Shown: positions 22,369-59,213 of the stretch, one piece after another
Position numbering within the stretch: position 1 is the first letter of the stretch
How the letters are laid out: each line of letters starts with the position of its first letter
Notes under the pieces: generated by a model
Seen by the model: the letters and a program-made list of their open reading frames with translations, nothing else
Database searches by the model: none
Told to the model about the DNA's origin: nothing
Program-made: the position numbers and the translations under genes
NCBI GenBank assembly: GCA_977020255.1
Contig: CDROCS010004439.1
Location: 1 to 59,213, forward strand
Origin: Obrimoposthia wandeli
Taxonomy: Eukaryota
Length of the DNA: 59,213 nucleotides
Direction of reading: 5' to 3'

Positions 22369-25300
22369 TTAAATTCGGAAGTGTCCATAAGCCAGGCTAG
22401 CGTTATTTTCTACCCAAAAGCGCTTGTCGTCATTACTACTCAAAGCGATTTTGGTTGATTTATGGGAATACAGTTGATGGGCTCTTGAAATAAATCTAGT
22501 TTGCTCAACGCTTTCAATACACCCAGTATCATAAACTTTCCGGTAGGCCTCATGTGTAAGATTGTTTCTTCCCACACCCTTTGCTCTCATTGAACATGTA
22601 TTATTAGATGCATGTAAACTGTAGCATTTAGGGCGTAGGAAAATACAATCATCATACGAAACCTGTCCCTCGCTTTCATCCTTAAATTTCCCGATAATGT
22701 CCTTTAAACTCATAGAGTGTAGAGGATGGTTAGCGGGATATTTACGGGTATCTAAAGTTGTCCTAAACATTGCTGGTAATAATTGATTATTTAAACTAAC
22801 ATTCCTACATTCTAAAAAGAAAGAGTCAGTGTCCCCAGCTGCGATTTTAATCTCACAATTAAATTCTTGTCGGTATTTCTCCAATTCTATGTATTGAAGC
22901 TCATACATTCTGAGTTTAGAAATGTCTAAAACCGTTTGACCTATATAACTCGGTTGATCGAGACAAATACTCTGTTTTCCTAATAACACTGCTACCAAGT
23001 CATCTGCAATTGTAAAACTACGATTGAAGTTGTACTTGCTAGTATATGTTATTAGTTTACGCTCATCATTGCAAAACCGTAGACAAATACGTTTCCGCAA
23101 GTCCTCTACAGTTTTTCCAAAGAGACTATTACTTTTTAACTTGTAAAAATCTCGATCGAATTTGCTAGTGGCCAAATTACGTTTTCTTGAATTCTTCTCA
23201 ATATAGTCTTTAAACACAAAGTTTTGACTGAAGCTTATAGCACGATGAATTCGAGTAACTTTCGCTCCCAACTTTAAGTAGAATTGAAGAAGCCGCCAAT
23301 GCACAACATAATTCAACTTGTCTTCATGGGTTAACAATAATTTCTTAACCTTTGAATTAGGTGGGCATTGATGAACAGGCGCTACTGGAAGATCATCTAA
23401 TTTATCATGCACATTGGGAGGGATTTTTATGTCCACCTCAACCAAATAGCCGACGTCGGATGAAACTGTATCAACAGTAGCCAAATCTGTCATCAACTTA
23501 TTCAACTGATCCACATCATAAACCCACTTAAAGTTGGCATGAGGTAGAAGTTGAGTGAGCGCCCACTTATACAAATTATTAATATCGATGTACAGAATCT
23601 TCGTGGATTGATTTTTGACAACATGATGTTTGTTGACAAAAGTAATTCCACCGCGTATACCATAATCATACATTTGATACATCGCGGGATCTTGCAGTAA
23701 CTCGATATTAATTTTAAGAGTTTTTATTGCTGTTGCCCATGAAAGACCAGGTAAACTAAAGAAATGCATGGGATCTAGCCCATCTTCTGCTAAAGACTTT
23801 ACACGAAAGGACTCAAAAACATCAGCTAAAAGATAAATGTCTAACTTCATATAATAAAGCATATATTCGAGAAGATTTTGACAATTATTCACCCAAAATG
23901 TACGGGCCTCATTATAGTCTTGAAGACTTACACCCTCAAATTCAGTTATGGGTGGGATTTCAGTTGTATTTTCTAAATCTGTGAAAGTTTTCGCAAATTT
24001 ATACGGAAAAATCCCCTTATCGTTAACCGAAGCTGGGAACACTGACTGTAATTGGCCATGCATTTAAAGATGCCGTTAAAGTTTTTAAAGACCCGCTCAA
24101 AAACTGTAGAGAATCTATGAATCTTAAACTGCAGAATTCAGTATATGCAGTTAAAGATAAATATTTATCTGAAGTTTGAGGTATACATGAAATTTCCCAA
24201 GAGCTTAATGTACCCAACGTATATTTAAGTATATGATGCAAATCATATCCCTTGAGATTATGAAAAACGATGGGAATGCGTGGTTTTTTAGGGAGACGAC
24301 GGCCAAGGTTACAAAGGTTGCACGCCGCTCCCAAGTATCGCCCCGTAACATGATCGTAATCTCTGACTAACTTAGACTGGGTTCCACACAAATAACATAA
24401 TCTACAAGAATTAAAATTAACCCAGTCTTTACCTGTCATGATCATTGCTTGATGAGCATTAAGATCATACCACGGTTTAACAATTGTTGTTCCTAATTCT
24501 TCTAATTTTAACATAAAATCTAAAATACAATTTGGACAGGGAAATGTATGATACTGTGTAATATTGGGGTCTAAGAATAGTAGTCCTGCCGAAGCCGGTA
24601 GGTGAATACTCTCATACTGGTCGTGCAATGCTAAAATTGACTCAAAATCTGCATACACCCTGAATTCCACGGGTATGCATTTTGCCCAATCCCTGAATTT
24701 TAAATCCTTATCCTTAGGCGTGCTATATAGCGTATTGTCATCAGGATTTGGTGAACATAATGTCAGATGTTTAATGTAAGAGAGCTCGGATTGGAATCCA
24801 TGCAAACATCTATGACACCACTTACACCTTATACTAACCGGTAAGGCTCCATTATCTAAATTTAGAAGACGATCTAAATTTGGAATTGCAGCATAATGGA
24901 ATTTTTTGTTATGTCGAGCAAAATTAAGTTTACCTGAGTCCTCTCATTTTTGCTTCTATAAATTACATCTACAAAAGGATTTAAAAAAATTTATTCATCT
25001 GTTAAATTAACTGGGATATCAGTATTATATTTGAATACATTAATACTCAAGTTATTAAGGTGCTAAAATCTTGATATCGCAGTTAATTTAAATGGAAAAT
25101 CTATTCCATGATAATGCAATTCATTTAAAAAAGGGGTATATTTACTGACACGCTCTCTATGCTCAGTAATTATATCCCTTTTGAGGATGACCAACACGCT
25201 ATACAGAAAGCAAAGGTTATCACTGTTTTGTATGTTAACAATGGAACGTGAAAGTTGAAGAGATCTAGGTGAAGGAATGTATGAACTCCCCAAAAGATAT

Positions 25301-25960: not shown

Positions 25961-26310
25961 TTCGTCAATTAAAAGGATTATTTGTAATTGGATGAAAATT
26001 TTGTAAATTATGAATTTCTCCAATTAGAAGAATTGTTTATCTACATGTCAAGTAATAATAAGATAGACTTAAACATTTTTTATATGCGCAATGGTCACCA
26101 TGATCACGATATGGACAGCAAATATTTCGTGGAATTTTTAATAGATGATCACGTGAAATATTTAAAGTATTCAATCTCAAATTTGGAAAATATTTTTTTA
26201 AAGACTTATACTTTTTGCCATCCATTTCATCTAAAACATAAAAAATTCCATTTTCAATATCAAAATTAGATTTTATTGTATTGAAAATACATATTTCACA
26301 AAAAGCCTTA

Positions 26311-26727
26311 TGTAGTGAATTCATGTTTTGTAGTTACTTAATTACCTAAAGTAATTGGTTGCATAATTATTCAATAAAATTGTATAATTACGCAACAAAC
26401 AAACTGTTTTATTTTATTTCGTTTTTAATTAATTTTGAAAACAAAATGGAGTAAAAGGGTTTGTTTTAATTTTTATATTTATTTTAATTTATTAATTTTG
26501 AATTACATGATGAATCTCTCAAATACAACATGGTCAGCTGCAACAACGACTTCTCAAGCTAATCCGGCAGCATGGTCTATTTCTGCCAATGAACTATATT
26601 ACAATTATTACCAAACTATATCTCCAGCAGTTACCACTATTTCAACTACTACTCAAACTCAAACTCAAACTGTGGAATTTAATCAAGACATAATATCATA
26701 TATAATTAAATATATGCTTACACTACA
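26311..26727 (+). repeat. 5' LTR (417 bp)
   Basis: TG...CA with a 7-bp terminal inverted repeat, followed by PBS-like TTGATGTCAGAAG. It has about 82 extra bp relative to the 3' LTR. Confidence 0.95.
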
Positions 26728-26750
26728 TTGATGTCAGAAGAAAAAAAAGC

Positions 26751-28104
26751 ATGTTCACATGTAAGTTTATTTTTGATTTTTTAAAACTATCATTTATCAT
26801 AGATAATTTCAAATCATTTAAAAATAAAATTAAAAATAACTTTTCGGTAGATGTATTTACATCACCAAACATAGATAATTTCAAATCATTTAAAAATAAA
26901 ATTAAAAATAACTTTTCGGTAGATGTATTTACATCATCAAACATACTTTGTGAAAGTAATGATAAGGTTAGGTCACCGGACACTGTTAGTACGTCCTCAG
27001 AATTTTTCTTTAAACATGAGGATTTTGGTAACATCACCACCAAATTTTCGTCACTTACCCGTATTGATGCAGTAGTTAGGTTCTTTCTGCCCACTTATGG
27101 TGCCGTTTGGTTGTCAGTAGATCCTAAACCACTACGATCATCATTAACACTTGGTGACTATAGAACTGGTTTGGTAACTGAAGTTATCATTCATCAAAAA
27201 CTTATAGGAGGTGATGATACTAATGCCTTGTCACTTGGTGACACCGCCTTAAGTTTTTTTCTAGATTCAAACGGTTCTCTTTCGTGTTGGTTTTCAATAC
27301 TAGAATCTCGATTTACGGCGCTGAACGTCACAAATCAGATGTCGAAAGTACATCGCACTTTACCCTTACTCACCGTTTAAAGTACTACAGAGTATTTCTA
27401 TGTCTTTGTCAGACGTTTTTGAAAATAAGGAACCTTTTACTGAACTGAAACGACTTATAGAATTTAAATATAAACCCTCATTTGATTCAGTATTTATTAA
27501 ATATTTCGGTTCACAATCACTTGGTGCAAAATCTCCTTCTGCATTCCTTAACACTGCAATCTCTGATTTAGAAACGCTACATCCCGGCATAACCAAAGAA
27601 AACAATAATAATTTGTGGCGCAAATTGTTCATTCAAGCACTGCCAAAAATGGCACAAGCAATTCTTGCTGGTAATGAGATGGTAGGTGATATCAAAATTC
27701 TTGCAAACTTGGCAGATCGCATCGTCACGAATTTAGAGCCTACGAAACCAGTATTTGCAATAAAGAGTGACATCGCAGAACCACAAGCATTAGATACTCT
27801 TACCAGTGTTATTTCGGCATTAGCAGATAAGGTATCACGTTTGGAAACTGAAATGACATCACATCGTTCACGATCTCCGCAACGTTCACGTAGCGCTTCT
27901 AGAGATCCTACTTTATGTTATTTCCATTATAAGTTTGGAAATGATGCTAGGAAATGTAACTTAGGCTGTGGTTGGAGACATAAGTCAGATAAACTTTTCA
28001 TTTTAGACACGTGCATCTATCACGCAAAATATAGAATTGACGCTAAGAAATGTTATCCAGGTTGTAAGTTCCAAACAGATAATTCTATTTCCTCAAAAAA
28101 CTAG
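26751..28104 (+). pseudogene. gag: Gypsy gag with two CHCC zinc fingers
   Basis: WFSILESRF..; a frameshift near 27352 joins to ORF 27400-28104 (LGAKSPSAFL; CYFHYKFGNDARKCNLGC and CIYHAKYRIDAKKCYPGC). A 72-bp tandem duplication lies at 26798-26941. Confidence 0.85.
28095..28101 (+). other. -1 ribosomal frameshift slippery site A AAA AAC
   Basis: Canonical X XXY YYZ heptamer in gag phase directly before the gag stop. The protease ORF is in the -1 frame. Confidence 0.8.
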
Positions 28105-31052
28105 TATCACCTTCGGTTACGACCGCAAACTCGCAAGGTGACTTATCATGCGGCATTTTTACTTCCCATGCTACTTTAACAGACTCCAATATCAATAGCT
28201 TAGAATTTCTCATTGATACAGGTTCAGCCATTTCGGCACTACCTATGTCCTTATATCCTACATTCCGCATGACCGACAGAATATTAGTTGCTGCAAATGG
28301 TACCACCGTTCATACTTATGGAACTACTACACTTCAATTTAGTCTTCAAGATATATCCACATCATTTAGTTGGACATTTACCATTGCCAACGTAACTCGT
28401 CCAATTTTAGGATCCGACTTTTTCTCTCATTATCGTCTACTAGTCGACTGTCATAACCAATGCGTACTCCACCCGACAGCACATGCAATTCCTCTGCCGA
28501 ACATCGAAATCAATATGCTTAACAAATTAACTGTCCAAAATTCTACTGCTTACATTACGGAACATTTTCCTAGACTTATTCATCGAACTACAGACATACA
28601 AAGCTCTGTTGAATCTTAACATCACATTATTACCTCACAATGCGCACCTGTTGGCCAACGTCGACGTGAATTGTCCCAAGAAAGAAGACTGCTATGTGAA
28701 GAGCAATTCTTACAACTTGAAAAAGATGAGATCATCAGACGTTCATCTTCTCCATGGGCTTCTCCACTACAAATTGTCCACAATAAAGATGGTACTTTGC
28801 GCATATGTGGCGATTATCGTGGTGTAAACAAAGTCACTATCCCTGATTCATATCCAATGCCTCTAATCAGCGATATCATTCAACGCTTTAACAAATGCAC
28901 AGTATTTTCGTCCATTGATTTAGTGAAAGCATATCATCAAATTCCGATGGAAAGTTCGTCGATAGAGAAAACAGCTGTCACCACTCCATTTGGACTATTC
29001 GAATATCTTCGAATGCCATTTGGACTTCGCAACGCGTCCCAAACGTTTCAACGGCATATAGATAGGGTCCTGCAAAATTTACCATATACAACGGCATATA
29101 TTGATGATATCATCATTGCATCGCCTAACGCTGAGGTACATAAAGTTCACCTTGAAGCAACACTCTCGCGACTAAATGAGCACAATCTACAGATTAAAAT
29201 GGCTAAATGTAACTTTTTTGCTTCACATGTAGAATTTTTAGGATACAATATTTCATCCCATGGTATTCAACCATTACCAAGTCGACTTTCTGCAATAAGA
29301 AACTTCCCTAAACCATCTACTACTACTGAACTACGCAGCTTCTTGGGAATGATCAATTTCTGCCGTAGATTTTTACCAAATCTATCTGGCAAACTTGCAA
29401 CCTTAACTACACTTTCCACTGGCAAGAAGCGTGCAAATATACAGTGGCCTGATAATGCTAACAACGCATTTTTACAAATAAAGGAAGAGTTAGTTGAAGT
29501 TACAACACTTAAATTCCCAGACAAGGATCTTACACTTACCACCGACGCTTCTAATGTCGCTATAATGATGCTTGCACAAATCAAACAAGACATTTCTGAA
29601 CCTCTTGAATTCTTTTCTCGTAAACTTTCGGTTGCACAAACCAGGTATTCCGCATTCGATCGAGAATAGTTAGGAATATACCTTTCTGTAAAGCATTTCG
29701 AACATCTTATTATTGGAAGGCATGTGATAATCTACACTGATCATAAACCTTTGATACATGCACTCACAAAAAAAAACTCCCAAACAACAGCGCCACATCA
29801 GCTACTTATCAGAGTTTGACATTGACATACGTCACATTTCTGGTGCAGAAAACATAGTGGCTGACTGTTTTTCACGGATTGAAATCGACTCAATTGATTT
29901 CGAGCCAATGTTATCACAAGATGTACTTGTGGAAAACCCTCCATCATCTGGAGACATATAATTATTTCAGACACCGCCTACCTTGAGAAATGGTATCTAC
30001 TATGACTATACTCTCAGCGGTTGTACTAGACTGGTGATAGGATTAAAATTACGCATTGATGTTTTTAAGGCAATCCATGCAATAACTCATGCAGGATTTC
30101 GTGCTACCTATGAACAAATCAAAACCAGAGTAGTTTGGCTCTTTATGCGAAAAGATATAAAGAATTGGTGCAAATCTTGTTTAGCATGTCAAGCCAATAA
30201 AGTCGTGAAACATACTAAACCACCAATTTTACAATTTCCAACAGGCAGCAGATTTGATACAGTACATATCGACATTGTAGGACCACTACCACCATCGAGA
30301 GGGTACACTTATTTACTAACTATGATTGATTGAAAAACTCGTTGGCCCGAAGCGTTTCCAATTCGTACAATATCAGCGCAAACTGTTGCTGACATCTTCA
30401 TAGCAAATTGGGTTGCCAGATTTGGTGTCCCGAAACGTGTTATTACAGATCAAGGCACCCAGTTTGAATCGGCGCTTTTCACATCACTAATAAAGCGTAT
30501 AGGGTCACAAAAAATTCGCACAACAGCATTTCATCCACAATCCAATGGTCTTATAGAACGATTCCACATAACGTTAAAGAATTCATTTAGATCACTTTCT
30601 GTTAACCACTATTGGATTCTTGCACTACCTTATGTGTTATTAGGATGGCGCAACATTATCAGCAGCAGACATGGCGCTTCTCCTGTTCAAATGCTATTTG
30701 GGTGTAACACCAATCTAATTGATGAAATATTTTTTGGCAACAACCCGTTAGATGATGTTCATGCGCAACGTGTCAGGGAACATTTTAAAACGCTGGACAC
30801 TACACCTACTACAAAATCTAGTCTGAATATATATGTACCAAAAGAGCTAAAAAACGCTAAGTATGTTTGGTTACAACGGGAATCTCCTACTTCCTTGCAG
30901 GCCAGATATTCTGGTCCTTTTCTTCTTTTACATAGCAATTTCGACAATAACACAGCAGTAATACTTGTAAACGATAAACAACGTACCGTAAACGTTTGTA
31001 AAATTAAACCTGCCTCGCATATAGATGACGACACGTGCTGTGGAGCCCTATA
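28101..31052 (+). pseudogene. pol: Gypsy pol (PR-RT-RNaseH-INT)
   Basis: FLIDTGSA; SPWASPL..ICGDYR; YIDDIII; TTDAS; TDHKPL; HAITH..CKSC; HIDIVGPLP; ITDQGTQFES. In-frame stops at about 28617, 29667 and 30331, and a frameshift near 29770. Confidence 0.95.
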
Positions 31053-31267
31053 AATTAATAAACATGTAACCTTTTCACCTTGGTGTACAATTTTCGGTGA
31101 ACAAACCTTACTAAAAACTTTCATTTAACATGCTTAATTTTAACTTTCATAATCTTTCATTAAATTAAATACTAAGTATAATTATATGTATATTTGATAG
31201 TGTTAAGAGATTGAGAATAGCTTCTTTTTAAATATTCCTTTTCGCTCCGCTACTTAGGTGGGGGCTA

Positions 31268-31602
31268 TGTAGTGAATTCATGTTTTGTAGTTACTTAATT
31301 AGCTTAAGTAATTGGTTGCATAATTATTCAATAAAATTATATAATTACGCAACAAACAAACCGTTTTATTTTATTTCGTTTTTAATTAATCTTTCAAATC
31401 CAACATGGTCAGCTGCAACAACGACTTCTCAAGCTAATCCGGCAGCATGGTCTATTTCTGCCAATGAACTATATTACAATTATTACCAAACTATATCTCC
31501 AGCAGTTACCACTATTTCAACTACTACTCAAACTCAAACTCAAACTGTGGAATTTAATCAAGACATAATATCACATATAATTAAATATATGCTTACACTA
31601 CA
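31268..31602 (+). repeat. 3' LTR (335 bp) preceded by polypurine tract AGGTGGGGG
   Basis: Matches the 5' LTR apart from one indel and a few substitutions. Confidence 0.95.
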
Positions 31603-44789: not shown

Positions 44790-45254
44790 TTATAAAATCG
44801 AATCAATAATGTCTGGATAATAAATTTTTTTCAATCCTAATATCATAACTTTGCCACTGGGATATATATTTACACATAGTGGTTTAAACTTCAAATAACT
44901 GAGTGCAGGAAAAATTTCTGGTTCAAGCATGCATTCTTCTTTCATTTTCTCTGCAATTTTATAAAGATTTATTGGGTTTCCGAGATTAGCTGAAATTGTG
45001 ATTGATTGTTTTGCAGTGATTCGAATTCCAAATGGTAAATTGAACTCATTCAATGTTTTTTTGCATCCCATAACACGACAACTTCCTAAAAGAATTCAAT
45101 ATGAAAATAAAATAAAAAACTAACCTGAGGGAAAAATAACAACTGTAAAATAGTTAAACCTTTTCACATATTGTCTCAGCTTTCATTCATTGAATAGTAA
45201 GTACGAAATATCATCTGCTATTCTGATTTTATAATTTATATTTACGAGTTTCAT
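44790..45254 (-). pseudogene. TATA-binding-protein-like gene: 2 exons (45254-45125, 45085-44790), 39-nt intron, one internal stop
   Basis: Spliced product MKLVNINYK..TVVIFPSG|SCRVMGCK..ANLGNPINL..LEPEIFPALSY..PLCVNIYPSGKVMILGLK reproduces both TBP repeats (LIFSSGKMVCTGAK; YEPELFPGLIY..LIFVSGKVVLTGAK). Confidence 0.85.
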
Positions 45255-45531: not shown

Positions 45532-45981
45532 ATGATGGACGATAGCCAACAGATATTAAGCTGTGATGAAGATTTAGAAATGTTTGAAGAATCGGATAAG
45601 GATATGTATGAAGAAGTGAAACAATATTTCAAATATAAAGTCAGATTCATGAAGAAGCCTCAACTGATTGCTTTAGTAAATCCTGTGACAATTGAAAGAA
45701 GAAAGTTCAGCTATTATCTATCAAATATTCAATAACCAGATTTTCAATATCTTAAACAGAAAGTTAAAAAGGCAGTTCCACATTTTACTTTCTATAAGAA
45801 CGAATTTTATATCCGAGGAGCCGATGCAGCATTTCTAGATGACTATGGAAGAGAAATAGATGTTGATGCGTTTCCGAAACAAAAGCAATGGACTGTAACA
45901 ATTCGACTTCATGGTTACAAGAAAGATGAAATTGGAACAAAGTTACCTATGTGGAAAATTGAACGTGCTCATATATTTTAA
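45532..45981 (+). pseudogene. Maverick SSB-like gene A (149 aa, one internal stop)
   Basis: A single frame reads through TAA 45733-45735 to ..AAFLDDYG..WTVTIRLHGY..KLPMWKIERAHIF*. It is paralogous to gene B; the SSB function is inferred. Confidence 0.55.
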
Positions 45982-46149
45982 CTACTTATTTTTCTTTCAT
46001 TTTGCATTTAATAAATTATAATCGGTTTTATTCATTTTTACTATGTTTCTTTCATTTGGCAATTAATAATCAGTTTTATTTTCATAATATTTGTATTTTA
46101 TATGTATTTTTTTATAAACATTGTTTTTAATCAGTTTCCTTATTTTAGA

Positions 46150-46556
46150 ATGGATCCTCTTCTGAGATATGTAGGACATTTTTATTATCCAGAAAGAATT
46201 TCAAAAGGAAAACTATGTAATATATTACATAGGCATCAAATTATACGAGTTATGAATCCTGTGAAAATATCAAAAGTGGAGAATAAATATCTCATCGAAA
46301 TTTTAACAACATCTGATAATGATCAATTGAAAAATATTTTGGGATTTTACATTCCTGATTATGTATATGAAGGAAATTGTTTCCAGCTTGAAACTGATCC
46401 CAGTCTGGCTTTTAGAGATGATCTAGGATTGATTGCTCAATTTTAGATGAAGAACTATGGAATATTTCAATAAGTCTCAAAGGATATTTTGCCGTTGACG
46501 GGAAAATGCAGCCTCTTTTGACTTTGAGTGAAGCCAATATGGTGTTTTATGTTTGA
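46150..46556 (+). pseudogene. Maverick SSB-like gene B
   Basis: MDPLLRY..QIIRVMNPVKI..LAFRDDLG (frameshift) ..LWNISISLKGY..GKMQPL. Confidence 0.55.
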
Positions 46557-46851
46557 TTTAATAAATGTCTTTAAAATAATTTTGACTCGTATTTTGTTTT
46601 TCTCCTATTAAACTGACCTAAACGTAATTTCTCGTATCTTACCAATGTTTTTATCTCATAAATTATTACTCTAAAATCTTTCTAAAAAATAGAAATAATA
46701 TATTCACGTAAACATATTATTTGAAATCTCGTCTTCGATAAGCCATCAGGGTCAAGATGGATTCCAGTGGTCTTCTCTAATCACTTTTGAGATTAGCAGT
46801 AAAATTCAAAGTAAAATAATTGTTATTAATTTATTCAAAAATGAGTTAAAA

Positions 46852-48355
46852 ATATACTTTATAAATTCATAATTTATAGTGATATGACACGATATATACA
46901 CGTGTAGTTAAATAGTGTTGGGGTTTCTGTTTGAAACTAGAGGCCCCCAACGTGAGTTCTGTAACAATAGGGCTTAAATATGTATGTGGCCTATATTTTT
47001 CTGGTTTATTTCGTTTAGTCTCAGTTCTAAAGGATTTTGCCTTCGTATTTGTATTGCAGTTGTGTGGAAAGTGATGTTCGTAGTACACCGACGACTTCCC
47101 GCTAACGTAGTGTCGAATATAGTAAAATTCGTATCTTTCTAGTCCTATGTGGGTCGATCAAATTAGCTTTACTCGATATGTAGGAAATAATATATTAATT
47201 CACGCGTAACTAAAAAGGAGCTATATCGACAATGATTTGTCTTACTACGCTTGTTTCCACACGGGGTAAACAAGTATGACCTTTACCTAACGTATTGAAT
47301 TTAATTTCTATATATTGATTTAAGTTTCGGATTCTACGTTCCGTAGTTGTTCCTTTCCTATGCTATTCAAATTATTCAAATCAATTAAGGTGATCTATTT
47401 CTCAGATTAGTCAAATACTTCTCAACTTAATTTTTACACAACTTTTTTAAATGATTTTTTAAAATGAAGTAACCCTTAAATTAAACAATTATTTTAATGA
47501 TTCTTTACACAATTTCTTTTCTTTAAAACAAAACGATTATACAGTTTCTTTTCTTTAAAACGAAACAATCACACAATTTCTTTTCTTTAAAACAAAACGA
47601 TTACACAATTTATTTTCTTTACAACGAAACGATCACACATTTTCTTTTAAATAGTTCACTCTACTTACCTCGATCAAGCTAGGGTTTGGTAATGTGAGAT
47701 CCTCGTCTAATTTCCTTGTGTAGTTCTTTTCCTCCGGCGTCCGTTGTCTGGTTGATTTCTCTTGTACGGCTGGTTCCTTTCTTGTACTGGCAATTAATGT
47801 TAACAACTTAATTTTTCCTTTTTTATTCAATTACATCATGAGTCTCCAATTATTCTCGTGGCAATTCGTCAATTCGCTTTCTCAGTCTCACAGTTTCCGT
47901 TTTTGTTTTCTTTAATGATTCGATTGCTGCTTTTATATAGTTTCATAAATTATAGTTTAGATAATTCAATTAGGCTAAGTGCCCTTACTTAGCTGAATGG
48001 ATGCCGGTTGTCCAATTCTCAGGAATCTGCAGACAGCATTTAGTTGTCGCGGTTTCTTGTCAGCTGGCTAAATTCCCAGCGAGTGTAATTTGAACCGTTA
48101 TTACAATTTTCTGCTTGTTGCAACTTATTTATTATTTTTGTCTTTTGTAATATTTTCCCCTTAACTTTCCTATATACATCACATTATACAACTGACCTCT
48201 TCAAGGTCCTAAATTACGTTTTCTTAATTTTTAATTTTAATTTAAAAAATATTAATTTATTTATTTATTCAACCTTAATTCAAGGTTTTATTTCTCCTAC
48301 ATATAGTTAATTTTATTTTAAAAATTTAATAATTCCCAATCTTAACAATAGTGAG
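46852..48355. mobile_element. Unidentified 1.5-kb insert, possibly an LTR/gag remnant, replacing the G-rich array
   Basis: Homology to the 33-kb Maverick end stops at about 46850 and resumes at about 48358. The insert has a decayed coiled-coil frame on the - strand and a 32-bp tandem repeat (about 4.5 copies, 47507-47650). Confidence 0.4.
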
Positions 48356-49677
48356 AGGCGGGGTATGTGTAGATGGATAAAGTTAATGAAAAATACTGTA
48401 GCACCCGGAGGGGCGCGTTGGGGCGACCGCACCCCCGCCTCCCAAAGGGGAGGGGAGCAGACGGGTCGAACATTTTTGGGCGGAAGGACCTTAGGAGATA
48501 TTTTGTTGACCTCTTTGTTGATATTTTTCAAAATTTCACTACACACACATGCATGAAATTTCACTCCACACACATGCACGATTTTAAAGGACAGTTGTAG
48601 CCCCCCGAATGGACAGGGTATTAGACCGGACATATCCACCTTCTACAAAAATTAACAAAACTGACGTATACATATCCACGAATTTATAGCTGCTGTATCA
48701 AAAAATTACATCAAACTGTTATAGGCTGTGAATAGGCTTGAAGATGGTAGGTTACTTATGAATAATTTAATTTTATATATCATTCCTTTTGTTTTTATTT
48801 TTCACACGAGATGGAATTGAAGATGGTAGGTTACTTATGAATAACCCGGTACAAGACAATGCATTTCCTCTAACTTCAAATTTACCGAGTATTTTTTATG
48901 AAAATAACGAAATTTAATTCGTACAAATTAACCTCCTTCTTTAGACAGATATTATAGAAAATATTTCGACTATAGTTCATAAAATTTTAGGAAAGGTTTT
49001 TGACAACATTGAAAGAATTAAAAATGAATTTCTGAAAATTTATCTGAAAACGATAAAAAAAACTTTATTCATCATTGCCTTGTCGAAGAATAGTATATTA
49101 CGCGAAGACAATAAGATATTAACTCTGTGATTTTACTTTATGTTTCACTAAAAAATTCTGTTCATATTTGTGTGACATGAATAAATGTTGTAGTGGTCTG
49201 TTTTACTTGTCACTTTGAAAATATATAAATAGTATTAAGCATTGTATATTTACGAAATTAATAGTTCGTTATCGACAGATTAATATTATAAAAAGACAGC
49301 TTAAAATAACTTTGGATTTGTGACTCTTACCAGTTTATTCATTTACAGACAACAAAAAATTATAAATAAAAAATAATATACAACATTGTGGACGAATACC
49401 ATAGTGAATTAGCATTTTTGACGTTCACTAGAAAACATGACCTATTGTTATATAATTTAAAAAATACTAACATTTAAGAAACAGTGCAGTTATCAAGAAA
49501 TAATTAACCATCCGTGATATCATCACATTTAGTTTATAAAGTTTAATATTGTTAAGAATATAAAAGAGTATTTGTTAAAATTGGTTAAAACCATAAAAAA
49601 TATACCTTTGACAAACAGATACTCAAAATTTAAAATAAATTAACATTACTTAATATTAACCTATACACATACACAAC

Positions 49678-50750
49678 TGTTAATAAACGGGTGTAAGGCA
49701 AAGACCAATATCCTCAACAATATATTCACAAACAACTATCCAATTTTGTTAACAAATATTCTTTGTGGATAACAATATATTCAATTCTGATAAATAACTA
49801 TTCTTTGGATAACAATATATTCAATTCTGATAAATAAATATTCTTTGCGGATAACAATATATTCAATTCTGATAAATAACTATTCTTTGGATAACAATAT
49901 ATTCAATTCGGATAAATAACTATTCTTTGGATAACAATATATTCAATTCTGACAAATAAATATTCTTTGTGGATAACAATATATTCAATTCTGATAAATA
50001 TCTATTCTTTGGATAACAATATATTCAATTCTGATAAATCAATATTCTTTGTGGATAACAATATATTCAATTCTGACAAATCAATATTCTTTGTATAACA
50101 ATATATTCAATTCTGATAAATCAAATCAATATTCTTTATTCTTTGGATATCCAATGTAAAAATATAAATAGTTTGTGAATAAATAAATATTTGTGTTATA
50201 TCCAATTTAAATGGTTGCTATTTATAGCAAAAACTGGTAAATCCAGGTAGAGGAGATTCTGCTGGTAGCTGGCACACAACAACAGAACAGATGCCGGAAA
50301 ACATCGCTGTCTGTTCGACTTCTGGGCAGAGAAATCCTGGACAGGTGAGAAATCTGGCCAAATAAACTGCATCAACACACAAACCACAGATGCCGGAAAA
50401 CACGCTGTCTGTTCGACTTCTGGGCAGAGAAATCCTGGGACAGGTGGGAAATCTGGCCCATATAAAAACTGCATCAACACACATACACAAATAAACACAT
50501 TTTAGCTGTGAGTGAGTAGTGAGATGAGTATGTAAGTGAGTATGTGAGTGTTAATGTTGAGTGAGTTGTGAGTGTAAGGAAGTTGAGTGAGTGTGTGTGT
50601 GTGTGTTGAATTGTGCACTCATATATATGTGAGTGTTAATGTTGTGAGTGAGTTGTGAGTGTAAGGAAGTTGAGTGAGTGTGTGTGTGTGTGTTGAATTG
50701 TGCACTTGCGCACACTAACATCACATGTCGACAATATTCGTCGGCACATG
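49678..50750 (-). repeat. Probable 3' LTR rich in internal tandem repeats
   Basis: On the - strand: 2 x about 80-bp CA-rich units (50545-50707), 2 x about 100-bp units (50288-50482), CTATAAATA near 50222, AATAAA near 50135, 9 x 40-42-bp units (49757-50130), and the end TTATTAACA at 49678. The upstream boundary is uncertain. Confidence 0.55.
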
Positions 50751-50820
50751 AAAGGGGGAATCTTTCCTCTTTCCCTGACTTTATTATTGTTATCTCTGGC
50801 TTCGCGGAATCCACCGTGAA

Positions 50821-50904
50821 GTCAGAGATAATAAACGCCATCTCCTGATGAGCCCGGCAGGGCGAAAGGGGCTTTTTCCCGTCGGAGATTGATTATCTTG
50901 AGAC
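50821..50904 (+). ncRNA. Type I hammerhead ribozyme, slightly decayed
   Basis: ATCTC-CTGATGA(50845-51)-GCCC/GGCA/GGGC-GAAA-gGGG/CTTTTT/CCC-GTC-gGAGAT. A distal stem I (AGATAAT 50826-32 pairing with ATTATCT 50892-98) lies beyond an internal loop. Two deviations from consensus. Confidence 0.8.
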
Positions 50905-51270
50905 AAAATGCCAAAGTGCATATTTTTAAAATAGAACTTTTCCTAATTAAGGAAAGTTCTAATTAATTCTTTAGTTAATTAATTTTTTTTACTTTTTATT
51001 TTTTAAAAATTTTTATATTTTTATTTTTTCAAAATAAATAGTTATAATATTTTCCCAACAATCTCCGGGTCATAAAAAGTCTCTGTCCTCAGCTTTATAA
51101 TCTATATTTTAATTATTGATGAAACTATTTTGTCTTGTTACTATTGTTAACTAGTGTTGTTTGTATGTTATAACTGATCAATGTTTTATTAATCACAATC
51201 ATGTCTGGTTAAATATCGTTAAAAATTTAGGACAAGAATGAAAACAGAATAAAATAATAACAATACTACC

Positions 51271-52442
51271 TTAATCCAACAAAATCGGGGAGTTTTGTGT
51301 ACCGGACTCCGAGTTTCCGGTCTTATGTGAGAACGATGAACTGGGGTTGTTCTCGCTAGATGGTGGATTCATCACCTCGGTCAAATCAAACTCTCTATTC
51401 AACATTTCCTCCTTCATTATGAAAATTTTTCGGGTGTGATTTGCATCTTCCATGCTAGTGTGGACTCCTTTTGTGTTTCTATATTTAAGTATTTCCGCAC
51501 CATGTTGGCGAGTCCAATATTTGGATGATTGGGATTTAGTTCTGATTTTTGCTTTCAGATATTCCTAAATCAACAATGTTGAATAACATCCATTTCTGTA
51601 GGCGTAAAGCTTTTAAATCGTTTGTTAGTCCCACACCTACGATGATGTTACCATACACAATGTTTTTTACTTCCTCAATTACTTCATCAGCATCTCTACA
51701 TCCTTGTAACTTTCTATCTGACAGTCCAGTTATTCTAGTAACGTAATTTCTTACTCTATCTCTAGTTACGCACAGTGTATCTATAATTACGTTACCTATG
51801 TAATTTATAATAGAAACACTTGCTAAAACTGGCTGTTTATCTACTGATATCACCATTTCGCAATCGAGGAATAAAATTGCTGGTTTCTGTGCGTTTTTTT
51901 AATTCAAAAAGGGCTATTTGTTGAGGTTCTTCTGCTTTTCTTATTTTTTCTATAAATAATAGATTTGGTCCTCTTCCTATTTTTATGCTATATTGATTTT
52001 CTAATTGAGCTGCTTGTAAGGTGTAGGTGGATTTCCTATCATCAGAAAGTTTAATGTCTTATCTGATTTGGTTTTTAAATGGGCCACTCCTAGTGCCACG
52101 TGAATATCTATTTTTTCACAATTATTATCGGGGAATATTTCGCTGAGAGCCATATGGGTTGGTCTTTTTTCATTGGAAAAAATAAGTGCGCTTGTTCTTT
52201 TTCTTCTGTGGTACTTTTAACTTATTAGGAAGAAATGTTTGATTTGAAAACATTTTTTCTTCCTCCGTTGTTTCTAAAGTATGCAATGCTAAACTGACGC
52301 ATCTTTGATACAGGAATTTTGCTAAATACCACCTTTCTGGTATATTTTCCGTTTTTCCTCCTTTTCTATTTTTGCTGTGCTTTTTGTTTGATCTGACCGA
52401 GAGTGAGCTGGTCTGAGTCGTATCCAGGTGATTGTTATCCAT
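51271..52442 (-). pseudogene. ORF with basic N-terminal region and C-terminal DEDDh 3'-5' exonuclease (REX4/ISG20-like)
   Basis: ILFLDCEMV..LASVSIINYIG..IIDT..NYVTRITGL..IIVGVGLTNDLKAL..IGLANMVRKYL..GVHTSMEDA. All D-E-D-H-D residues are present, with frameshifts near 51545 and 51470. Confidence 0.88.
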
Positions 52443-52499
52443 TCTGCTTTAATCAATTTGTTAGTTGAATAAAATAATATAATTATTTCACAGTCTTAA

Positions 52500-53005
52500 A
52501 GTTATAAAAATATCAGTCTTATCCATGCAGTATGTGGGATTTGTCATGAAAATAAACTTATTAATAAAAGTTAGACAATTTGTACAAAGGAGGATGTATG
52601 GTTATAGTTTAACCAGAATTTTGTTCACCAATGTTCATATCCGAGTCATATCCATCATCAAGTGTTGTATTAGTTGGGATAGTAGGATTAATGGTCATAT
52701 AAAAGTTTATCATGTCGCTATAGGTCATCATTTGTCTTCTTAATGAGGCTATAGTTGATCGTTGACTTAAAGTTGTTGTATTAAATAGTCTATTCTGCCA
52801 AAACTATGTGTCAATCTCCCTTCTAGTTCGTCAATTGTTAAATCATTATTCAATTTTTTCTTCCACACTTTGTTTTATTAACTGTTTCAGTGATTCATTT
52901 TGAGTTGTGATCTTTATATAGTAGTCGTCATGCTGTCTGGAAACATCTCGAATCTTTTTCTCTAATTTTTTGCATTTTTTACAAACTTTTGCCAATCTGT
53001 TCATT
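52500..53005 (-). pseudogene. Decayed coiled-coil ORF of unknown function
   Basis: MNRLAKVCKKCKKLEKKIRDVSRQHDDYYIKITTQNESLKQLIKQSVEEKIE.. with several stops. Confidence 0.35.
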
Positions 53006-53229
53006 TTTATATCTAAAAATAACCATTATTAAATTTCAGGATGCGTTTCCTGGTGATTTTATTTTAATATTATTTCATTAAATCGTCTTTAAAAATATAC
53101 ATATATCAAATTTTTATTCTATTTCCTAACTAATTTAGATTTACTTAATAGTACTAACATTTTTTGTTACTTAAACGGTTTTATTTAAAAAGGATTTGAT
53201 TATTGTGTTATATTTCTTTTCCTATTTTC

Positions 53230-54420
53230 TATTACAGTATTTATGGATAATTCTGAAGAATTCTCATCCTTGGGAATAATATAAATAGTAAAAGGGCCTG
53301 GGGGCCCACAAAAGTGTTTTAGTTGTTTTGTTTCTATCATTTTTGTATGTTTCAAAATTAACATTCTCCATGATATTTGATTTATAAAAATATAATTATT
53401 TCGATTACTATAACTATTATTATAAGTTCTTTTTTATCTTCATTCCTTGAATGTTCTTGTTTACCATAGTGCATTTTTAAACTTTCATTAAATGATTTAT
53501 AGGATATTGTTTCTGTTGTTTTTAATTTTAATTTAATTCTTATTTTTTCCGTAATTTCAACTTGATTTGTAACTCTGTAACTTTTTGATGTAAATGTTGT
53601 GGTATGTAGCAATTGTTTTGTGGTTATTTCTTTAACATATTTCTTAATTTTTACTGCTGACCAACGACCACAAAAAATTGTAGGTTGATATAGTTTGATA
53701 TCTTATTTCCTAAAAAAATTGTTAATTTTGTTAGATTTTTATAACTTTCAAACTTTTGACTCCATTGTCTGTACATTATTGGTTTATTAGTGATTACGCA
53801 TTCTCTATTGTCTATTATTATTTTCTTTGGATATCTTATATTTTCTATGGTTAAATTTGTTTTAGTTTGTGTATTTTCTAATTGTTTTTCTGAGTCTTTC
53901 CAAAAATGAGCATTATGATCTCTATATCTAATTCTAATGATGGCTTTATCTAAATTATCTATTTTAAGTTGAAATTCCCATTTTATCATGATTTGATGTT
54001 TTTATATATATTTTGCTGTTGTTTTTAATATTGATGCTAGGTATATGTGAGTTTCTATAATTCTTTCATAGAGTGTTATATTTTTTAATTTCGACTTAAT
54101 TCTTATTTTTATATTGTGTTTCTGTTCTTAAAAATGGTATTGTATATTTTTGTGATTTTATTCCTGAAATAATTATATTTTGTTTTCTATCTGTTTGTGT
54201 GATTTGCACATTTTCCTGTTTTGTTTGTAAGAAGAGAAATTTTTAACTTTATTGATGTGATTTCAGGTATTATTGTTAATCCAAAAATTTTTATGAGATG
54301 AGTTGTTGAGTCGAATTTATTTGTTTGTTGTTGTATGATTGATTGATTTTCATTTATGTTTGTTGCGTTTACTTTCAGTAGGTAATATTTTATTATAAAA
54401 TATATTATCAATAACATCAT
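53230..54420 (-). pseudogene. Second putative type I membrane protein downstream of integrase
   Basis: N-terminal signal-like MMLLIIYFIIKYYLLKVNA and near-C-terminal LIIIVIVIEIIIFL. ORFs 54187-54420, 53651-53989 and 53382-53612 can be linked across stops and frameshifts. Confidence 0.5.
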
Positions 54421-54483
54421 TATTTTACCAATTTCTTTTATTGATATTTTATTGTATTTCTGGTTTGATGACTCAAAATAGTT

Positions 54484-55850
54484 TTATTTTGTTTTTTGTG
54501 AGTTTTTTATTGTCAACATTTGTAGAACTGTATTATAATTAGTTGATCTTAAGTTATATTTGTGACTTTTTATTTTTGTATTCTCCTCAGGTATTTCTCG
54601 ACATCTGTTTATATGTGCTCTTATTTCTTTTGATTTTGGTTCATTATCTAGTTTAGCTGTTATGTTGGTTCCGTTGGTACTAATGACTGTATATGGTCCT
54701 TTGTATGGTTTTGATAATTTGTGAGACAATCCTACATTAATTTGTGGATTGTGAATCATCACTTTACTTCCGCTTTTTATATTTGATGGCTTAGTTCTTC
54801 TATCATAATATTCTTTGTAATTTTCTTGTATGTTTTTTACAAATAGTTTAGCTTTTTCGAATGCTAGTTTTATTCTTTCTCTAATTTCTATTTTATATTC
54901 AGGTATTTCTAAATATTGTGTAGTAGGTTGTAGTAATGTTAGGTCAATAGGCATTTGAGGATCTCTGAGGAACATAAGATAAAAAGATGTTTCTCCTGTG
55001 GATGCATGTACTGATGTTCTATATGCAAAAAGGCATGGAGGTATGTGTAAATCCCAATCTGTTTGGTTGTTGTTTGTGTATGATGCCATCATATCTTCGA
55101 GGGTTCTATTAAATCTTTCTACTAACCCGTCAGTTTGAGGGTGATATGGTGTTGTATTGATCTTTTTATGTGAAAAATTTCAGCTATTGACGCTAATACA
55201 TTATTTATAAATTCAGGACCTTTGTCGGTTATAATTTTCGGGGTGCACCGAAAGTAAAAATAATTTTTCGACTAAAACCTTCGCGATGGTTTCAGCCTTA
55301 TGATCATGTGTAGGAAAAGCCTCTGGCCATCTTGTAAAATAATCAGAAAATACTATTATATATCGATTTCCTCGGGGTGTTTGTGTAATGGTCCCATTAC
55401 ATCCATGGCAACAGTTTCCATGGGGGCTGATGGATAAGGTATTGGCTTTAAAGGTATTTTGTGGTACGTAAAGTATTTTTCCGTTTAAGACATATTTCAC
55501 ATGTTTTTACACCAATTTTTTACATCTTCTTTTCATGTCAATCTAATAGTATTTTAAATTTAATCGTGAATGTGTCTTTTTTGATGATAAATGTCCTCCT
55601 AGGGCTCCATTATGATATTGAAGAAGTAATTGACACTGAATTTCTTTAGGAATAACTAGTGAATATATAGATTTTTGTCATTTAAATAATATAATATTTC
55701 ATTACTATATTTGTATCGTGATTCGTAGATTTTTAAATGTTTTCTTAATTTTTCATCTGTTGGTACTTCGTTTGTGCTAATGTATTTAGTTATTTGCTGA
55801 ATTTCATTATCTTTGCTTTGAAGTTTAGTAATTACTTTTTTCATCATATT
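54484..55850 (-). pseudogene. Gypsy integrase
   Basis: HHCC region (KNWCKTC), MDVMGP..GNRYIIVFSDYFTRWPEAF, TPYHPQTDGLVE, KLSKPYKGPY (GPY/F module), YNLRS. Confidence 0.93.
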
Positions 55851-55989
55851 TAGCTTGAATTATTGTAAAGATTTAATTCGATGTCGTTAGCAGTTATTTC
55901 GTTTATTTCTTCTCTTATTCGTGATAGACAATCTGCATTAGCGTTAAATTTTTTTTTCTATATTTTATTTCAATATCAAATTTTTGTAA

Positions 55990-57100
55990 AATCAATGCCC
56001 ATCTCATTAATCTAGATGTTGTATCCTTATGATTTAAAAGCCATTGTAATGGTCTTTGATCTGTGTAAACATAAACCTTTCGTCCTAATAAGTAATGTTT
56101 AAAAATGTTCCATTGCGAAACAAATAGCCAGCATTCTCTTTCTATCGTTGAGTAATCTTTTCATGTTTTTAAGACCTCTGCTCGCATATGCTATCACATT
56201 ATCTTTTCGTTATTTTCCTGTTGTCCTAAACTGCTCCTAACGCATAACCACTGGCGTCAGTCATAACTAAAACGAGTTATTAAAATTAGATATCTAAGTA
56301 TAGGTTTTTTCGATTAATTTTTGTTTTAAATATTCATAAGATTCTTGTTGTTCTTTTTTCCCATTCAAATTTTTCTTTATCTTTTTTAATAAGTTTATTT
56401 AATGAACTATTTGTGCGAAATTTCTAATAAATCTTCGATAATAATATCCTGCAAGCCCTAAAATTCTGTATATTTTTACTGTTTTTGGGATTGGAAAATT
56501 TTTTAATCTTTTTCTACATTACTCTCGTCTGGTTGTATTCCTTTTTGCTGGATACAGCATGTCCTAAGTAATTTCATTTTTATCTTTTTATCCATTCATT
56601 TCTTTGGTTTTAGTTTTAATCCTGCTACCTGTAATCTTAAGAATACGTTTTCTAAATCTTTAAATGTTCTTCAAAATTTTTGAAAAATAAGAATGTCGTC
56701 GATATACCATTACGTGATCTGCATCCATTAAAATATATGGCTCATACATCTCTGAAATGTTGCTGGAGCTCCGGTTAATCCAAATGAATTCATACAATCC
56801 TTCTCCTGTTGAGAAAGCTGTTTTATATTTATCTGACTCCTCACTTCTATTTGCCAGTATCCACTCTGTAAATCTAAAGTTGTAAATACTTGTGCATTTT
56901 TTAGTTTGTCTAATATTTACTCACCTCTGGCAGTGGATAAGTATCTTTGTGAGTGACTTGCTTCTAGTTTTCTGTAGTCTACGCAAAACTTCAAAGAACC
57001 ATCTTTCTTTTTTACTAAAACAACAGGTGATGTCCATGCAGAAAACTTTTCTAACAATTTCGGCTTTCTAACATTCCTTTTATTTGTCTTTGAGCTTCAT
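55990..57100 (-). pseudogene. Gypsy reverse transcriptase and RNase H
   Basis: [79 protein letters not shown]. Many frameshifts. Confidence 0.95.
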
Positions 57101-57689
57101 CTCTGTAGGCATATGGAATTCGGTAGGTTTGTTTTATTGCGGTGTTTGTTGTTAACGGAAGATTTATGTTTTATCAAATTTGTTCGACCTAAATCGTATT
57201 CATTTTAGCAAATATTACATCATATTTTCTTGTTAAAGTTTTAAGTTTTGATTTTTCATAATCATTTAATTTGATATCGTTAAAATTTATCGTAGATTTA
57301 TCTTTTATTTTTCATTATCTATTAATTCAATATTTCAATAACATCTCTATTTTCTCAAGACGTACTCCTTCCTTGAGATGAATTTTATTAATGTCTGCAT
57401 TTAGATTCTTGATTGGTATTGTGTTGTTTTTTATTTTACAAATTATATTTGGCAAAACGTAGTTCAAGGTTTCTGTTGATATTTATAAGACTCCAAATAA
57501 TACATCTTTTTTCCGCATTCGTTAGTTTCTAGTTGTAACATTGTTTCTGTTCTTGGTTGGAGAATGATATCTTCCTTTTATTTCTTAACTCGTATTCATC
57601 TTTGGCGTTAGGTCTGTAATGCTCATTTGATTTTTTTCAAAATCAAAGTGAAATTATTTCCTAATTCTCAATGTATCTATTCCGATGAT

Positions 57690-57960
57690 CATTTGGCAAA
57701 GACAATTTTTCATTATTTTTGTAGGTATTTTATGAATTTATTTCCTATTTTAAAAAGAAAGTCTAATTTTCCTATTATATTTACGGGCGACTGTTTGCTG
57801 CTGTGACTTGGACTATTTTCCTTAAGAAGAAGTAATTTTTGTTGTGTTTTAAGAAAGATTCGTCTAAAACTGTTACGTTTCTTTGATCCTGTGTCAATTA
57901 AAGCTAAGTTTATATTCGTTAATTTCTACTTTACATATGGTCATGTTTATCGTTATCTTT
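57690..57960 (-). pseudogene. Retroviral-type aspartic protease
   Basis: CKVEIN....LIDTGS (across a frameshift) ..IIGKLDF..MIIGIDTL. Confidence 0.8.
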
Positions 57961-57989
57961 TGATTTATTGTATATATTGTTGGTGCAGT

Positions 57990-59213
57990 TGATTTTTGTA
58001 TAGTTGTTTTATCTATATATTTTCTTAAATCAGGATATTTTGAAGATTCCGTTTTTTCTGTTTCTTTTGGTACTTGTAATTTTTTGTATATTTGTTTCTC
58101 GCATTTCATTTGATAATGTGTTACTATGTTTTGATGATGATTAAAAAATAAGGAATTTTGCCAAAAATGGGACACATCCTAAGACACTTCCATGTTAATC
58201 CTCCAACTTATAAATATAATATGTTGATAAAATTTGACTTAGAAGAATCTTAAAGCAAATTAATACATATATTCCAACTAATCCAGAAAAATGCTTGTCC
58301 AAAAATTAAAATTTACCCCATATTTTGACATGGTGTTTAGTGGCTTTATAAAATGATTTGGAGTAGAAAGTAATGTCGTAATCGGACGGCTAATTCCGTC
58401 AGGTAATTGATCTTTTCTATGATTTGTGTTAAAATTCTGGATCTTATTTTAGAAATAAAATTTCATTTTCTTAACTATCTATATCTTCCTGTATATAAAT
58501 TCCTTTGTGTTTAATCTGTTATCTGATTGTATATTGATGCCGTTAAGGAGAGTGGTTAATTGTAATTTTGTGGCCTCCTAAGTGACAATATCTCTTCTGG
58601 AAGTGAAAACTAAATATATTTTGAAATTTGATAATGAGGTGCCAATATGTTTGAGCAGTTTATTTCTTTTATGCTAAAAGTGTTATATGATTCTAGTGAT
58701 TGGTTCACAAATAATGAATTATTTTTCAAGAAATTGGTAATTTTTTGTACATTTTTGATGATTTCTATGTTAACTTTTCTACTTTTTACATTGATAAGTG
58801 TATAACACCTCCCATTACTCTTCCAAAAAGTACCGTCAGCTAATGGTACAATGGTGTTGGGAATACTCCTGGGTTAGTTAGTAAATAATTGCCAATTTCG
58901 TTTTTAATATTTCCTGATTTAATTTTACAATCATTCATTATGGTTTCTCTATATATTGCTTCTATTGTCATTAGTCTCAGATAAAAAATAATCTAATTTA
59001 GGTTAAAATAATCATAATTTTTAATATCAAATTTAGTTGGTGTCGTTTTTGAATTATGTATTTTTCATTACTAAATATATCCCTTTTTATAATTAGTTGT
59101 GGAACAGAGTGTCCACATCGATTTCTTTTTAATAAACGTGATTCCTGAACCTTGTTCAATAGACACAATATAGTTGGAGTTGGTTAATACGCACCGAACG
59201 GAAGCACAATGAT
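57990..59213 (-). pseudogene. env: gB/chuvirus-like env, C-terminal half, directly upstream of protease
   Basis: LLTNP..DGTFGRVMGGVIHL..EPITRII..EINCSNILAPHYQI..IWGKF..FSGLVGI..GLTWKCL. Homologous to 13020-13300. Confidence 0.72.

Follow-up and report, generated by a model that had tools for sequence, protein, structure and literature searches.

Antisense hammerhead ribozyme motif in the long terminal repeats of a gag-env-pol Ty3/gypsy element of Obrimoposthia wandeli

The plus strand of the window (the whole stretch of 59,213 nt of Obrimoposthia wandeli DNA that was analysed) carries a type I hammerhead motif inside the 3' long terminal repeat (LTR) of a gag-env-pol Ty3/gypsy element of about 13 kb, which lies on the minus strand (Table 1). 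The hammerhead is very probably real and under selection. All core boxes named in the original prediction were recovered on the plus strand, and its placement of the motif in the 3' LTR, antisense to the open reading frames (ORFs), was upheld by the LTR ends and by a tRNA-Trp primer site. In three elements the LTR was found twice, about 9.4–13 kb apart, with the ribozyme in both LTRs, which makes the ribozyme part of the LTR itself.

Table 1. Features of the window (positions of the whole stretch)
Feature	Position	Strand	Remarks
3' LTR	49678..51060	-	1,383 nt; TGTT...AACA ends; internal repeats of 40-42 nt and 87 nt
Hairpin immediately upstream of the ribozyme	50787..50834	+	21 bp; 20/21 pairs at probability 0.96-1.0
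Conserved triplet 5' of stem I	50837..50839	+	Common to 48/60 distinct motifs
Type I hammerhead	50840..50889	+	Stems I and II of 6 and 4 bp; sister copies have a 5-bp stem III
Stem I, 5' strand	50840..50844	+	
CUGAUGA	50845..50851	+	
Stem II	50852..50863	+	4 bp with a 4-nt loop
GAAA	50864..50867	+	
Stem III	50869..50880	+	
GUC	50881..50883	+	Cut site predicted after 50883
Stem I, 3' strand	50884..50889	+	
Conserved bases 3' of stem I	50890..50892	+	Triplet identical in 55/60 motifs
Short conserved motif 3' of the ribozyme	50905..50921	+	Contains a 4-bp hairpin
Short purine-rich stretch beside the 3' LTR	51061..51070	-	Putative weak polypurine tract
Extra ORF, broken frames	51271..52448	-	3'-5' exonuclease domain (RNase_T family; PF00929, E 4e-6 in the C118 copy)
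Broken pol and end of env	52900..59213	-	Protease, reverse transcriptase (RT), RNase H, integrase; left boundary approximate

The hammerhead motif, its flanks and its covariation

The conserved boxes CUGANGA, GAAA and UH are arranged around a three-way junction with an open stem I, and the motif is unique in the window (0 in 20 shuffled windows). Two deviations had been flagged, a mismatch at 50868 and a stem I short by one pair at its junction with the core; both are present and mark the window copy as damaged, all 29 other loci of the window's family being unlike it at both places. Assembly errors may account for these deviations, since the window contig is rich in indels (50 indel events in 5.1 kb vs 11 between two other copies), but across the genome the 50868-type mismatch was seen at 6 places, and the two deviations in combination at 2.

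A search with the Rfam hammerhead models, proposed along with the original prediction, gave a mixed outcome. The window copy stayed below every Rfam gathering score, with a weak match to Hammerhead_3 (19.5 bits, E 1); the sister copy L007 reached 32.4 bits (E 2.9e-6) against Hammerhead_1 (RF00163), the cut-off of which is 34; and RF00163 searched against the genome gave 10 matches among 74 scored candidates, 6 of them over the cut-off and with differing stems. Folded as a hammerhead, the window copy has an energy of -13.3 kcal/mol vs -19.0 for its best fold, and for the 52-nt motif of L007 the hammerhead is the best fold (-19.3).

Covariation was counted on 60 distinct motifs (L102 and L103, which carry a more distant motif, were left out). 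At least two Watson-Crick pair types, each seen at least 2 times, were present at 9/14 stem positions, so that the compensatory changes whose absence would have spoken against the original prediction were found, in related copies with an intact core. Wobble pairs were biased toward the ribozyme strand (G-U 48 vs A-C 16), and the variable core position was occupied by three bases. Paired cells amounted to 760/840 vs 627 +/- 10 after dealing the 3' strands among the rows, a contrast inflated by related rows. Because the motifs had been chosen partly by pairing, an extra test was made on positions that the search pattern left free: in stem I, which is mostly unspecified in the pattern, 159/174 cells were paired, and at its pattern-free positions 102/116, compared with 29–79 in slid controls (L081, a duplicate of L080, was excluded here).

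Conservation was also seen next to the stems. Position 1.7 is U in 59/60 motifs and the final base of loop 2 is A in 60/60, and the loop-2 ending is common to 42/60; the U at 1.7, the triplet 3' of stem I and the loop-2 A were not demanded by the motif finder, with the reservation that 9 rows trace to the search with the Rfam model. The U at 1.7 may be the partner of this loop-2 A, and the two may be the bases of the reverse Hoogsteen contact between helices I and II. The text available from PMC6155905 describes such a contact as conserved in hammerheads. A putative pseudoknot, for which no covariation was seen, would join loop 2 to the triplet preceding stem I.

The distal part of stem I in the original prediction did not hold: its proposed 5' arm is the 3' arm of the 21-bp hairpin just upstream of the ribozyme, and the distal stem was dropped, the best helix there being 2–6 bp across 25 sequence groups and not kept. 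Several subfamilies have the upstream hairpin, with varying stem and loop; it is short in one and absent in another. On the 3' side, other subfamilies have a duplicate of stem I's 5' strand in place of the short conserved motif, and in two subfamily groups (L069-L098, L105-L134) this strand is repeated 10–25 nt 3' of stem I. The repeated strand could fold onto the 3' product and thereby block re-ligation, or compete with the active fold. Pairing of the polypurine-tract junction with the motif in the sense RNA was likewise explored and rejected; it is present in the window's family and does not covary in two other subfamilies.

Ensemble folding was done with 80 nt of sequence included upstream and takes no account of tertiary contacts; the probability of stem I was at most 0.14 at all four lengths in 8/13 natural copies, the high-copy family among them, and exceeded 0.5 in only 2/13. 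Folding in context disfavours the active form in these models, and this counts against cleavage.

The 50868-type mismatch is present in both LTRs of two other elements, which indicates that elements with a weakened ribozyme have transposed. Some other base stands at the equivalent position in 25 copies, and the core has decayed in old solo LTRs. ATG-started ORFs longer than 158 aa were absent from the ribozyme strand in 6 stretches, and no antisense coding was found.

The host element and the spread of the motif among its relatives

The element combines TG...CA LTR ends and a target duplication (4 bp, on the C118 and C636 copies) with a tRNA primer site. The latter lies on the minus strand after the upstream LTR and matches the 3' end of this genome's tRNA-Trp genes; it fixes the orientation of the element, and the ribozyme is therefore antisense, with its cut site about 180 nt inside the start of the window LTR. 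The tRNA-Trp genes stand in a tandem array with a 207-bp period (G000:C5734:143176-151119), and at 4 loci where ARAGORN called no tRNA the sequences are copies of the primer site. AATAAA or ATTAAA was observed in the first 36 nt of 15/16 LTRs (sense positions 14–36; around 51025 in the window), which may be chance in AT-rich sequence or the sign of an unusually short U3-R.

Between the LTRs, the minus strand encodes a gag-like frame, the viral fusion glycoprotein PF24664, protease, RT, RNase H, integrase and an RNase_T exonuclease. The gag-like frame is labelled by position alone and has no Pfam match. PF24664 was found in three consecutive frames preceding the protease, between gag and pol, and the order protease-RT-RNase H-integrase is that of errantiviruses; the best database relatives are 54% identical. 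The window integrase has a long C-terminal extension, and the element extends past the window edge (beyond 59213). Extra coding sequence follows the integrase (51271-54483 (-) in the window; L033:5517-9926), with about 500 residues without a Pfam match, and the exonuclease, a separate ORF after the integrase, is merely 41–53% identical in some subfamilies.

Every copy count given here comes from one genome. The intact 30-nt core occurs in 1,295 exact copies (control 0), and each of the 150 RT matches scored shows 100% identity across 102 aa; on these counts the window's family is young and large. A pattern leaving out this family gave 188 further matches (control 0), which likewise lie close to a ...CCCAACA end. 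The signature of a solo LTR (4-bp duplication plus TGTT) was seen in 13/34 of these further copies, with 1.6 expected (maximum 7).

For orientation, LTRs were chosen by their primer site alone, using the first 30 of 229 matches. An antisense hammerhead was present in 18 of these 30 LTRs and a sense hammerhead in none (shuffles 0/120). Among the other 12, 5 carried a decayed or partial antisense copy, 1 retained the flank alone, where the locus ends, and the remaining 6 showed nothing. Interiors were examined for 14 of the 18 hammerhead-bearing elements, and in 14/14 the strand with the primer site is also the one that encodes gag, env or pol, with proteins mostly 70–97% identical to those of the window's family, which points to a single lineage with many LTR types. 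Integrase DNA is 90–94% identical between subfamilies in 10/20 stretches. The LTRs themselves match the window LTR solely around the ribozyme, within its positions 53–281, in 11/15 comparisons and nowhere in the other 4, and the core lies 122–216 nt from the LTR start in all 16 LTRs compared. Judged from these alignments, the ribozyme is the best-preserved part of the LTRs.

Hammerhead relatives were not detected in a pattern scan of metagenome contigs, nor RT/RNase H relatives in a search of viral contigs (0 in each). A link of the motif to the distant family C2320 (envelope 39% identical) was not established, since neither a primer site nor a gag lies between the two. L102:7631, L103:6962 and L104 near 6080 hold a hammerhead that is more distant: its stem III is longer, and its flanking hairpin and tail are similar. 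Tandem arrays were observed at G000:C1071:289000-346300 (L099-L101), where each 907-bp unit holds one pattern-matching and one decayed hammerhead module, and at C6912:182900-204200; the C1071 units end in an LTR-type end, and the array resembles a retrozyme multimer derived from LTR ends.

The element is surrounded by Polinton-like DNA (22369-24943 (-) and 44790-45095 (-) in the window; L037:1470-2165 (-)), with frames for a protein-primed DNA polymerase B (PF03175), a TBP-like protein (PF00352, E 7e-11) and, by eye, a Walker-A-like protein. The flanks of 12/29 family loci match window DNA left of 49200, which suggests an insertion preference for the Polinton-like repeat. Another Ty3/gypsy-type element, unrelated to the first, is located at 26309-31602 (+); its LTRs are short and it lacks a hammerhead. 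Positions 13104-14162 (-) are a fragment of a more distant envelope glycoprotein family (DNA 67–79% identical to L045 and L043). Positions 45746-59183 correspond to G000:C118:366000-379476 as a 13.4-kb duplicate or second haplotype at 96% identity, insertion site included; in this comparison the window side is rich in homopolymer indels.

Proposed role and rival explanations

The chances are about even that the job of the ribozyme is to cut antisense read-through RNA ahead of the genes. An active lineage of envelope-carrying gag-env-pol Ty3/gypsy elements would then be retaining a working hammerhead at the U3-side end of the LTR, opposite the genes. Antisense RNA, whether it enters from neighbouring DNA, belongs to a host small-RNA precursor or starts through backward promoter activity of the LTR itself, would be cut about 180 nt before leaving the 3' LTR toward the genes; the downstream piece, with no cap and a 5'-OH end, would be degraded or not exported, and its loss would mean less antisense interference and fewer dsRNA or piRNA precursors against gag-env-pol. 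The sense genomic RNA carries the reverse complement only and would remain uncut. The beneficiary would be the element lineage over many generations, and not a single replication round or the host. The variant with the mismatch in both LTRs and the decay of old solo copies fit a benefit that a single round can do without, although the former may equally be read as weak selection.

The weak point of this anti-silencing role is the fate of the downstream 5'-OH piece. Since the polymerase would continue after the cut and the ORFs are matched by the downstream piece, the idea needs this piece to be degraded or else rejected by the machinery that makes small RNAs; 5'-3' exonucleases act poorly on 5'-OH ends until these are phosphorylated. 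About 85% of the LTR would be left upstream on the capped antisense piece, so that LTR-directed small RNAs would not be prevented. Gypsy-type elements are known to be silenced by antisense piRNAs and flamenco (PMC11599104, in the text available). The further suggestion that the ribozyme acts as a counter-defence, with each insertion breaking antisense host RNA including piRNA-cluster transcripts, and that this helped the element to reach more than 1,000 LTR copies, is possible but doubtful. Host transcripts that run across any of more than 1,000 LTRs in one of the two orientations could be cut, and a single predicted cut position in that many genomic repeats would allow a sharp test of how an element responds to antisense and piRNA silencing.

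The ribozyme might instead yield a useful antisense RNA, either a capped LTR RNA whose defined 3' end would consist of the hairpin and a cyclic phosphate, or a circle of unit length, for self-regulation or as a decoy. We regard this as the main rival, but as unlikely. The motif does stand in both LTRs, and two cuts would give a unit-length RNA with ligatable ends, as in the plant retrozymes described in the accessible text of PMC4918200; a strong hairpin directly precedes the cut site in several subfamilies, and the 907-bp units at C1071 each pair a pattern-matching with a decayed module. Yet that hairpin is short in one subfamily and missing from another, there is no antisense ORF, the LTR interiors lack the conservation expected of a functional RNA, and a stable antisense RNA would presumably harm the element. 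Decidedly improbable is a hitch-hiker, that is, a fragment of a Penelope element or retrozyme taken up in reverse by an ancestral LTR and carried along, or kept by a selfish non-coding RNA that uses the LTRs, although type I hammerheads of animals are known in Penelope pLTRs and non-LTR retrozymes (PMC4209133, PMC7229834, bioRxiv 10.64898/2026.07.22.740005; accessible text in each case), the 6-bp and 4-bp helices have canonical metazoan sizes (PMC4209133) and tandem arrays do exist (C1071, C6912). The relic of a Penelope element or retrozyme that the original prediction had offered as an alternative was weakened by the loci themselves: no Penelope-type domain was detected in 80 frames (at least 105 aa) from 67 hammerhead loci, no Penelope element was found near the motif to which it might belong independently of the LTR, and LTR ends, 4-bp duplications and primer sites were found instead. 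Moreover, the copies stop at LTR termini (4-bp duplication plus TGTT in the 13/34 given above), stem III is a stable 5-bp helix and not the 1–2 bp described as typical of Penelope and retrozyme motifs in that part of PMC4209133, and a passive relic would not outlive the rest of the LTR with compensatory changes. A Penelope or retrozyme origin is plausible; it may explain where the ribozyme came from, but not its upkeep.

That the conservation is non-catalytic, reflecting a DNA promoter or integrase signal, a structure of the sense RNA or a template-switch site among subfamilies, with no cleavage in vivo, is highly improbable. The proximity of the motif to the LTR end, the upstream hairpin doubling as a DNA inverted repeat, the folding in context against the active form and the transposition of the mismatch variant would all be compatible with it; against it, the stem letters vary while pairing is retained, wobble pairs stand 48 to 16 for the antisense strand, the core position that varies in hammerheads shows three bases here, the loop-2 A and U1.7 are nearly invariant, and the pairing between polypurine tract and motif shows no covariation. 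An obligatory step in replication, for example an antisense piece priming reverse transcription, would presumably profit from defined RNA ends near the LTR start, but the canonical tRNA-Trp primer site is present and elements with the mismatch in both LTRs exist, and we give this reading hardly any credence.

Comparison with known systems

The motif resembles hammerheads of RF00163 (Hammerhead_1) in its core boxes, in its open stem I and in the lengths of stems I and II (6 and 4 bp), and relatives score over the gathering cut-off; it differs from the usual members in its stable 5-bp stem III, in having no conserved distal stem I, and in its location in a true LTR on the antisense strand. With the plant LTR retrozymes, as far as the text available from PMC4918200 describes them, the element shares a hammerhead in both LTRs, a primer site, a 4-bp target duplication and Ty3/gypsy machinery. 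Those retrozymes are non-coding and non-autonomous, with a type III ribozyme on the primer-site strand, whereas the present element codes for gag, env, pol and an exonuclease, and its hammerhead is of type I and opposite the primer-site strand in 18/18 cases. The hammerheads of Penelope pLTRs and metazoan non-LTR retrozymes (PMC4209133, PMC7229834, in the portions available) are similar in being of type I, in a terminal repeat of an animal retroelement and occasionally in tandem arrays; they are described there as being without LTR ends, primer site and polypurine tract and as having mostly a minimal or weak stem III. An ORF with RT and GIY-YIG between pLTRs was not found here, nor were short tandem units, the arrays at C1071 and C6912 being the exceptions. 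On its sequence features, the element is neither an LTR retrozyme nor a Penelope element.

Ribozymes are also known from other retroelements. The HDV-like 5' ribozymes of the R2 and L1Tc non-LTR elements likewise set a self-cleaving RNA against read-through transcription, but in the literature available they cut the sense RNA and free the element's own 5' end, and both ribozyme class and element type are different. In general, the known retroelement ribozymes (Penelope, R2-type, non-coding retrozymes) process the element's own RNA, and here the orientation is reversed; a reversed hammerhead as the best-preserved LTR feature in a protein-coding, envelope-carrying element would imply selection on antisense transcripts of a retrovirus-like element. 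In a literature search with thin cover of subscription journals, an antisense hammerhead in a coding LTR element was unreported, and the search gave no ribozyme that counters host silencing instead of processing the RNA of the element carrying it.

The element itself agrees with the gB-type GAG-ENV-POL errantiviruses (PMC13524379) in gene order, PF24664 glycoprotein, LTRs, tRNA primer site and many near-identical copies; the available text reports the gag-env-pol order for gB-type errantiviruses of nematodes, bryozoans and flatworms. Compared with the errantiviruses in that text, the present element adds an exonuclease ORF and the antisense ribozyme, and the words 'ribozyme', 'hammerhead' and 'exonuclease' are absent from the main text of PMC13524379 as available. 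Both parts are of known types, the ribozyme as a new member of its class and the element as an errantivirus; it is their combination that the literature search did not turn up.
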